Virus record (IMG/VR): IMGVR_UViG_2622736468_000007
Strand: one strand, 5' to 3'
DNA length: 28,446 bases
DNA from: a virus
Lineage: Duplodnaviria; Heunggongvirae; Uroviricota; Caudoviricetes
Numbering within the stretch: position 1 is the stretch's first letter; every line of letters starts with the position of its first letter. Made by a program: the position numbers and the translations under genes. This document shows, piece by piece, positions 22,949 through 23,316 of this stretch. Under the pieces are notes generated by a model, which was not told where the DNA came from, did not search any database, and saw nothing but the letters and a program-made list of their open reading frames with translations.

Positions 22949-22976
22949 TTGACAATGTACCCCTGAGATACATAAT
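22949..22976 (+). promoter_or_regulatory. candidate strong sigma70 promoter (pL-like) flanked by TGTACC motifs
   Basis: TTGACA-N16-CATAAT; ATGTACCC occurs in the spacer and again just downstream. Confidence 0.4.
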
Positions 22977-23316
22977 GTACCCAAGCGAAACAACGAACAG
23001 GCAAGACGCCCACGAAGTAGCCGCCTGGGGCATATGAAGTCCAGGATGATTCGTTAGCAACAAAAAAGCGCCCTATAGGACGCTTCGCTCTTTAACAATC
23101 TGGAGATCCCCAACACTTAACGGGATTTTGGCTTCGGTTCTGGCGGTGAAGGACGAGGTTTTAAGGGTATATGATCCTCTTTCCATGTATATATAAATAC
23201 ATTCATTTAGTCATCTCAATATAGAATCCATTATTAATTCATACTCATAAAGCCTGTGTGACTTTGGTGATGGTGGTCTGGGCTTTGGAGGTACATGGTT
23301 AGGGATTATGGGAATT

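Follow-up and report, generated by a model that had tools for sequence, protein, structure and literature searches.

What does a near-consensus promoter do when it points into the 3' end of a convergent gene and no gene of its own strand follows for about 1.4 kb? The question is raised by a stretch of 28,446 nt of a Caudoviricetes virus (IMG/VR record IMGVR_UViG_2622736468_000007, hereafter the window), in which the sequence TTGACA-N16-CATAAT follows the terminator of a repressor gene and faces a gene for a putative membrane protein with two transmembrane segments (2-TM gene). The first-pass annotation, made from the letters of the window, had proposed either a pL-like early promoter whose operon has been lost or an antisense regulator. 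The results described below indicate that the promoter, with the mechanism proposed for it, is very probably pL, the early-left promoter, of a lambdoid prophage with immunity of the e14/SfV/SfIV type, that its operon, judging from the elements kept on the plus strand, is remodelled rather than lost, and that the predicted transcript starts with a folded leader RNA that is widely conserved and apparently undescribed. The coordinates of the features are collected in Table 1.

Evidence for an Early-left Promoter

The promoter scores 11 of 12, the top value among promoter-like sites within 20000-28446, and lies directly behind the repressor terminator, as the first-pass annotation had described. 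Because such sites are not enriched as a class in that region (9 found vs 16 expected from shuffled sequences), the hexamers alone are no proof of a promoter, and the weight rests on the operator and on conservation. The operator-like motifs that had been noticed within the promoter proved to be a palindrome, OL1, that matches the two perfect OR operators between the cro-like gene and cI with a single mismatch. When up to one mismatch is allowed, TGTAC-N7-GTACA occurs at 4 sites in the window, compared with 0.61 expected, and none of 100 shuffles reaches this number. Relatives keep both hexamers and the half-sites of the operator unchanged, while its 7-nt spacer is free to vary, and one diverged relative carries the perfect palindrome TGTACCCTGTGGGTACA at the position of OL1. 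The transcription start is predicted at about 22983-22984, whose counterpart in Escherichia coli K-12 (NC_000913.3) lies at about 1,202,185 on the minus strand.

The surroundings of the promoter are shared with known phages. It occupies the same place just past the repressor gene in SfV, SfIV, PhiR29, Ayreon and e14; the repressor counterparts in relatives are annotated as ymfK or cI, the counterpart of the cI terminator is annotated as a terminator in SfV and Ayreon, and the Ayreon record labels the counterpart of 22949-22976 as 'promoter'. The repressor gene, OR, the promoter and the first ~75-130 nt of the transcript are matched in SfV, SfIV, SfII and PhiR29, and in Ayreon, cdtI and Stx2c phages the match stops at 23006, about 30 nt past the promoter. 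Promoter, OL and leader are also common to E. coli MLI107 and to the K-12 cryptic prophage e14 (repressor ymfK/cohE). Across 38 complete E. coli genomes 22200-24400 is kept with at least 99% identity, and about half of all complete genomes of this species have parts of it.

In SfV, SfIV and PhiR29 the pL strand runs on into yfdP, yfdQ and yfdR-like genes, and in SfV then into xis and int. The plus strand of the window keeps conserved RNA elements, a yfdR-like gene and an excisionase-like gene in synteny with SfV, SfIV and PhiR29, which argues against the loss of the operon that had been suggested. The locus therefore presents a sigma-70 promoter past the repressor terminator that reads away from PR, OR-type operators that overlap this promoter, and early-left genes, including an excision function, on the same strand. 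Neither an N gene nor a nutL site was found directly 3' of the promoter; there is no credible plus-strand gene before 24435, the listed open reading frames (ORFs) in this part being short and lying antisense to the 2-TM gene or in the GC-rich RNA region, and no N-like gene is annotated in a near-identical prophage. SfV, SfII and SfIV have been described as having no homologue of N, cII or cIII (PMC3851460). Taken together, the hexamers and half-sites kept by the relatives, the promoter annotation in Ayreon, and the same-strand yfd genes of SfV, SfIV and PhiR29 suggest that 22949-22976 and its operators are pL and OL of the e14/SfV immunity type, so that the pL-like nature that had been proposed agrees with position and direction, with the operator shared with OR and with conservation in SfV, SfIV, PhiR29 and K-12 e14.

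As in lambda, pL adjoins the end of the immunity transcript and shares the direction of cI, operators of the OR consensus overlap it, the early-left operon ends in excision functions, and a membrane exclusion-type gene (sieB in lambda) lies convergent within the operon. Unlike lambda, which has three operators, the window has one full and one weaker operator; it lacks the N gene and a nut site of boxA and boxB, the transcript is non-coding over its first ~1.4 kb, and the integrase gene, which stands at the end of the window, is encoded by the opposite strand. In relatives this gene adjoins the host gene yjjG, which marks the end of the prophage. With e14, SfV, SfII and SfIV the window shares a near-identical repressor, OR, pL, OL and leader RNA and the same STnc100-like region. 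It differs from e14, in which ymfJ and convergent ymfI without a boxA module stand past the leader, by a boxA module and a 2-TM cargo, and from SfV, in which the leader is followed by orf33 overlapped by a convergent ORF.

A Conserved Leader RNA at the 5' End of the Predicted Transcript

The first ~75 nt of the transcript exceed their surroundings in conservation and recur behind unrelated promoters. They hold a leader in which an outer helix, P1 (22993-22997 paired with 23050-23054), encloses a small invariant hairpin A (23000-23002 with 23008-23010) and a hairpin B of variable sequence (23024-23028 with 23041-23045). A first set of leaders comprised 70 instances from viral contigs with 19 upstream promoter/operator types and gave an alignment of 29 distinct sequences. 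In this alignment 96.3% of the cells are paired, compared with at most 49% when the partners are slid; 36 cells are changed on both sides, and the observed covariation is reached in 0 of 500 shuffles. A second, independent set, with one genome per species, was collected by means of an 18-nt string and then a covariance model, and it contains 31 full-length copies that span Xenorhabdus, Photorhabdus, Yersinia, Serratia, Pantoea, Kosakonia, Leclercia, Enterobacter, Citrobacter, Buttiauxella, Kluyvera and others. Here 98.2% of the cells are paired (at most 45% with slid partners), and compensatory changes are found in 9 of the 13 pairs. In some copies P1 is swapped entirely, from GCGAA/UUCGC to CCACC/GGUGG, a change visible in the raw sequences.

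Unpaired stretches of the leader are near-invariant across genera, namely CAGGCAGGACGCCCACGAAGUAGCCG (also listed as CCCACGAAGUAGCCGCC), GGCAUAYGAAG and GAUGA. The distance to the promoter is also constrained, the leader starting 12-16 nt (mostly 13) after the -10 hexamer of a good sigma-70 promoter in about 15 of the 19 upstream types; in prophages of Photorhabdus and Xenorhabdus discussed below it starts 7-8 nt after it. The leader lies 3' of the repressor gene in SfV, ST64B, 118970_sal3, ZF40, SPN3UB and Kp4866-6, is present in e14 (1,202,110-1,202,179 of K-12 NC_000913.3), and in mEp237 is found upstream of kil/recE. A full-length copy (65 bits; P1 = GGAAC/GUUCC) is carried by the T5-like virulent Providencia phage vB_PreS_PR1 at 1799-1869, in the terminal-repeat region and upstream of the pre-early genes that include A2 and A1. 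A scan with the covariance model found no second copy behind PR. The leader is almost always unannotated among 49 phage records, no Rfam family matches it even at permissive thresholds, and the search of open-access literature text for strings of its sequence returned nothing relevant. We regard it as a widely conserved folded RNA that is apparently undescribed.

A One-way Terminator Joined to boxA

Past the leader lies the hairpin at about 23062-23086 that had been assigned to the convergent 2-TM gene as a terminator. This assignment holds for the minus strand, on which 23065-23086 is a good intrinsic terminator, and fails for the plus strand, on which the same letters fold with -7.2 kcal/mol and have no U tract. 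Folding was used for this purpose since a simple terminator scan misses the large-loop terminators of SfV and ST64B. A boxA is fused to the foot of this opposite-strand terminator, about 100 nt into the predicted pL transcript, and its 12-nt core GCTCTTTAACAA agrees at 12 of 12 positions with the core of the rrn boxA. In contrast to a nut site, the boxA of the window is accompanied neither by a conserved boxB nor by N, and it goes with the leader in some phages only. When relatives were compared, no conserved boxB hairpin was found 3' of boxA, and the sequence past ATCTGG changed with the type of cargo. A classical nutL site was accordingly rejected, because boxA is perfect but a conserved boxB and an N gene are missing.

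The extended boxA string GCTCTTTAACAATCTGG was also observed in many other phage contigs; in some, T7-like on inspection, it stands about 30-60 nt past tandem early promoters that are strong, and in other lambdoid contigs directly after cro-like ORFs. Since it recurs after early promoters and cro-like ORFs, the extended boxA appears to be a common early-transcript signal of phages.

A Convergent Slot with Variable Cargo

In the product of the 2-TM gene, residues 31-48 and 50-68 (approximate limits) form neighbouring hydrophobic segments, in agreement with its description as a membrane protein. Homology to SfV breaks at 23055 and resumes at 23960, and homology to PhiR29, SfIV, Kati and one Klebsiella phage breaks at 23115 and resumes at 23905. 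These break points delimit a conserved left module (23060-23115) with boxA and the terminator of the minus strand, a slot of variable content, and a conserved right flank. In viral contigs that were found by a scan for the boxA module and from which both slot flanks were recovered, the longest ORF of the slot is on the minus strand, convergent to pL, in 52 of 52 cases. The cargo belongs to at least 4-5 unrelated families, among them 2-TM proteins, a 144-amino-acid family, a coiled-coil family and a signal-peptide family. The same geometry is found in lambda, where sieB faces pL from within the operon. With a terminator and a candidate promoter of its own, a lower GC content, and variable content between conserved flanks, the cargo has the features of a moron or sieB-like gene. 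At the place of its candidate -10 hexamer the Klebsiella phage Kp4882-1 has GATAAT.

The 2-TM cargo belongs to PHROG 6315, a family of unknown function; PHROGs gave no function for it, and no match was found in Pfam, NCBIfam or PADLOC, in which homology to SieB or to SLATT 2-TM effectors was likewise not seen. UniRef names three homologues of the 2-TM cargo SLATT or 'SMODS and SLOG-associating 2TM effector', a label that was not reproducible here. In SfV (3883-4343) the plus-strand orf33 is overlapped by a convergent ORF with a better-looking ribosome-binding site, and in K-12 e14 (5498-6085) the annotated ymfJ, on the pL strand, and the convergent ymfI overlap.

RNA Elements and Genes Downstream of the Slot

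Beyond the slot the plus strand carries several further RNA elements. The conserved block at 23960-23992 is also kept in Klebsiella, Cronobacter, Salmonella and Hafnia phages, and in phage LLS, which has neither cargo nor a leader matched by model R1, it follows pL directly (3640-3672). The next element resembles STnc100 RNA over the full length of the Rfam model and, as its score stays below the gathering threshold (41.1 vs 47 bits), it is treated here as a divergent relative rather than a member of RF02076. It folds with z=-5.9, its 3' hairpin is DicF-like (19 bits), and its strong terminator at 24175-24221 (stem 24175-24215, 13 bp, -23 kcal/mol, then U5) acts on the plus strand by prediction. 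With STnc100, PasD and DicF it shares the core GGUGAAU...CACCGGGAGGCACCCGGCACCA and a terminal hairpin with U tail. DicF is encoded within the dicB operon, a repressor-controlled early-left operon, and the RNA of the window, too, sits inside such an operon. Comparison by eye indicated compensatory changes in relatives, in which UGCAGUG/CACUGCA stands in place of the closing helix GUUGUGGUG/CACCACAAC and the hairpin CCGGG-AGGCA-CCCGG is replaced by GGUGG-AGGCA-CCACC. At least 120 viral contigs contain the motif CACCGGGAGGCACCCGGCAC, some of them in 2-4 copies. Neither a promoter scan nor inspection by eye yielded a convincing separate plus-strand promoter for this RNA. The copies of STnc100 and PasD that have been described lie near Q, stx and lysis genes and not behind pL (bioRxiv 10.64898/2026.05.13.724894).

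Between the terminator of the STnc100-like RNA and the first early-left gene a long hairpin with the outer stem ACAAAACAGAGAAGA...UCUUCUCUGUUUUGU is found, which is kept in Ayreon, cdtI, Stx2c phages, LLS and ST64B. Behind the excisionase-like gene, between it and the integrase gene, an island of 37.7% GC (25200-27222) carries a plus-strand gene (25932-26951) whose 339-amino-acid product has a DUF4365 match in Pfam (E=7e-19) and, in PADLOC, weak ones to Aga_REase-PNTD and PDC-M02A; the gene may be defence cargo at the end of the prophage.

Elsewhere in the window, the replication region on the minus strand (20547-21346) looks shortened in an unaligned comparison, an 81-amino-acid helix-turn-helix (HTH) fragment abutting a LexA-like N-terminal fragment where MLI107 has a 313-amino-acid gene, a PerC-like gene and a 108-amino-acid gene; such a shortening suggests a defective prophage. 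Rfam matches above the gathering score, all on the minus strand, were obtained at 1336-1534, 6327-6443, 11977-12407 and 16200-16639, and they correspond to an IS009 RNA, an ALIL pseudoknot (a signal for frameshifting in the IS3 family) and two 5' untranslated regions of the cspA-thermoregulator type that belong to prophage cold-shock genes.

TABLE 1. Features of the pL region and their positions in the window
Feature	Position	Strand	Description
cro-like gene	21944-22144	-	Divergent from cI
OR operators	22151-22167 and 22201-22217		Two perfect TGTAC-N7-GTACA palindromes between cro and cI
cI-type repressor gene (YmfK/CohE-like)	22235-22909	+	224 amino acids; LexA-type S24 autopeptidase domain (Pfam Peptidase_S24, E=1.5e-26)
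cI intrinsic terminator	22921-22947	+	8-bp stem (22921-22940) and T run; ends 2 nt before the -35 hexamer
pL-type promoter	22949-22976	+	TTGACA 22949-22954, 16-nt spacer, CATAAT 22971-22976
OL1	22956-22972		TGTAC-N7-ATACA, 1 mismatch to the OR palindrome; over spacer and -10 hexamer
Candidate OL2	22976-22992		2 mismatches; over the predicted start; OL1 and OL2 centres 20 bp apart
Three-helix leader RNA, ~65 nt	22993-23054	+	Covariation and covariance model R1 (match 22989-23057)
Cargo-gene intrinsic terminator	23065-23086	-	9-bp stem, -13.7 kcal/mol, U6 tail; kept with different cargos
boxA CGCTCTTTAACAA	23086-23098 (to 23103 with conserved TCTGG)	+	Sole perfect match in the window
Variable cargo slot	23116-23904	-	39.9% GC vs 51-53% in the flanks; holds the 2-TM gene 23317-23796 (-)
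Candidate cargo-promoter -10 hexamer, TATAAT	23923-23928	-	In the conserved right flank 23905-23960; -35 hexamer poor; read from the sequence
Conserved block CCACC-N-GCCUGAUGUGG-N-AAAAGCAGGC	23960-23992	+	Interleaved helices, possible H-type pseudoknot
STnc100-like structured RNA	24001-24224	+	Rfam RF02076, 41.1 bits, E=4e-7, full-length; gathering score 47
Long hairpin (~90 nt) and small GC hairpin	24222-24310 and 24324-24336	+	Folding, conservation
yfdR-like 5'-deoxynucleotidase gene	24435-24971	+	First protein-coding early-left gene in this prophage
Excisionase-like HTH gene	25006-25200	+	PHROG 1553 'excisionase', E=2.6e-34; weak HTH_17/MerR matches

Alternative Explanations for the Promoter

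A chance match to the sigma-70 consensus that has no function would agree with the lack of enrichment of promoter-like sites in the region mentioned above, and yet the chances of such a match are close to nil, given the match at 11 of 12 positions, the OR-type operator embedded in it, the invariance of the hexamers in diverged relatives, and the same position after the repressor gene in SfV, SfIV, PhiR29, Ayreon and e14; this conservation effectively refutes it. The antisense regulator of the first-pass annotation would be a promoter that mainly makes RNA for silencing the convergent 2-TM gene, either by interference or by RNA pairing. Transcripts from pL must indeed cross 23317-23796 antisense, the cargo terminator being no block to the plus strand, and the convergent orientation that is universal at the slot makes interference upon induction plausible. 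Nevertheless, promoter, operator and leader are kept with unrelated cargos and also where ymfJ/ymfI (e14) or other sequence (ST64B, sal3, ZF40 and SPN3UB) stands past the leader, the downstream elements and genes of the plus strand are conserved and syntenic with early-left operons, and in lambda, where the geometry of sieB is identical, pL serves the expression of the early operon. Silencing as the main role is therefore improbable, and the collision or antisense pairing with the cargo transcript is likely a by-product and not the purpose of the promoter.

The lost operon of the first-pass annotation, that is, a relic pL whose operon is lost or dead and whose promoter is a fossil in a decaying prophage, finds some support in the absence from the window of the ymfJ/orf33-type region of e14 and SfV and of yfdP/yfdQ of SfV, in the elements related to insertion sequences (IS) in the prophage, and in a substitution (A23004) at a near-invariant position of the leader. 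We judge it quite improbable, because yfdR and the excisionase-like gene are intact on the plus strand, the arrangement of 22200-24400 is kept in the 38 complete E. coli genomes mentioned above, and the layout with convergent cargo is the standard form of the module and not damage to it. It is also unlikely that the main product of the promoter is a short, stable RNA (the leader, ~65-100 nt) with a role in trans, be it as a small RNA or as a decoy for a host factor. The unpaired stretches that are near-invariant across genera could be seed or protein-binding sequences, and early-left operons of prophages are known to yield small RNAs such as DicF; however, neither a plus-strand terminator nor a U tail follows the leader, and the sequence past it varies among phages. 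Since the leader is fixed at the extreme 5' end behind many promoters, a role in cis fits better than one in trans. The reading of 22949-22976 as the pL of a remodelled early-left operon is the one that we develop below.

Possible Role of the Leader and Comparison with put

In a lysogen the LexA-like CI protein would bind OL1, and probably OL2, and hold pL shut, and upon self-cleavage of CI in the SOS response host RNA polymerase would start at about 22983; repression by CI and opening by SOS are inferred here by analogy with switches of the lambda type. The transcript would first fold into the three-helix leader, then cross the hairpin that terminates minus-strand RNAs only, next expose boxA, and then run antisense through the cargo gene, which has its own candidate promoter and terminator and is presumably expressed from the prophage. 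It would go on through the STnc100/DicF-like RNA and terminators into yfdR and the excisionase-like gene. Because transcription from pL would thus have to cross ~1.4-1.45 kb that are not translated, run antisense to a presumably expressed gene and pass one strong terminator or more before the first coding gene, and because SfV, SfII and SfIV have no N, an N-independent device seems to be needed for efficient expression. The boxA would attract NusB and NusE, and it could suppress Rho where the RNA is untranslated. The leader, with or without boxA and Nus factors, may work in cis, either on the polymerase during elongation or against Rho. Of the two, the leader is the better candidate for N-independent read-through. 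Its fixed 5' position, its invariant single-stranded residues and its presence in the pre-early operon of a virulent phage point to a conserved host target and not to a fast-evolving phage protein. Our suggestion that the leader is a cis-acting element of elongation or antitermination is nonetheless a tentative one, and a role in RNA stability or processing, an RNA acting in trans, and a binding site for a phage factor are alternatives to it.

The put elements offer the closest comparison. Like putL and putR of HK022 and putL of HK639, the leader lies within the first ~10 nt onwards of the pL transcript, measures ~65-70 nt and has two stem-loops (PMC9378689). It also has the short strings CGAAC...GGC and GGAUGA at a similar spacing, and among its carriers the Shigella phages SfV, SfII and SfIV are devoid of N and bear the element at the start of the pL transcript. 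In contrast to put, the two hairpins of the leader are closed by an outer helix, stem I of put is not reproduced in the leader, and GGAU, a loop in put, is part of a stem or junction in the leader. A search with model R1 at E<=10 and with the filters off gave no match in HK022 28240-28312(-) and 29450-29525(+) or in HK639 34187-34312(-). The composite CGAAC-N30-55-AGGATGA is common to the leader and to putL and putR of HK022, as a string that was derived after the sequences had been seen. Membership of the put family was rejected, the model finding no put and the shared strings standing in different structural contexts. Thus, the leader may work like put, although on the tests run it is not a member of that family. 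The Nus-dependent mEpimmI phages (PMC11893012) belong to a different group and were uninformative here.

Several observations weigh against the reading developed here, the first two of them against the leader as a simple replacement for N. LLS and Ayreon, which are N-less relatives, have no leader. In prophages of Photorhabdus and Xenorhabdus an ORF of ~120 amino acids that by eye resembles gp24 of P22 (N/Nun-like; Arg-rich N-terminus, C-terminal ...VALYS...ITAR) lies ~200 nt past the leader, so that the leader is not confined to N-less phages; HK022 combines put with the N-like Nun. The boxA follows the leader in only 7 of the 31 species-level cases, and leader and boxA are therefore not an obligate pair. 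The alignment of the species set was fitted to the structure of the model, which favours that structure, and the fold of the single leader sequence is unremarkable (z=-0.6), the support for it being comparative. Finally, position 23004, in the loop of hairpin A, is A in the window and G in at least 90% of the family, including the near-identical prophage of MLI107, and the prophage carries IS-related elements; on these grounds the pL system may be decaying or no longer working in this genome, and the prophage is possibly defective.

The promoter itself is ordinary. The combination of the leader and a boxA fused to a one-way terminator with a convergent slot is a variant of the lambdoid early-left region for which we found no description. 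No N is annotated in the corresponding regions of ST64B, ZF40 and SPN3UB, and phage LLS also has no N; the authors who described LLS could only speculate about a 'put-like' mechanism (PMC12315714). The leader now provides a concrete candidate for read-through in N-less early-left operons with strong terminators and long untranslated stretches, and because e14 carries it, the candidate can be tested in E. coli K-12. In turn, a swappable convergent slot with conserved flanks inside the early-left operon may help to find exclusion and defence genes of prophages. It is conceivable, if still doubtful, that the leader represents a new class of cis-acting phage RNA that, once transcribed, binds a host component, most likely RNA polymerase or a Nus- or Rho-related factor. 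If this is true, it would make early transcription resistant to termination and polarity, as an analogue of put in function that is unrelated to it in structure, and it would be an element common to temperate lambdoid phages of many immunity types and to T5-like virulent phages.

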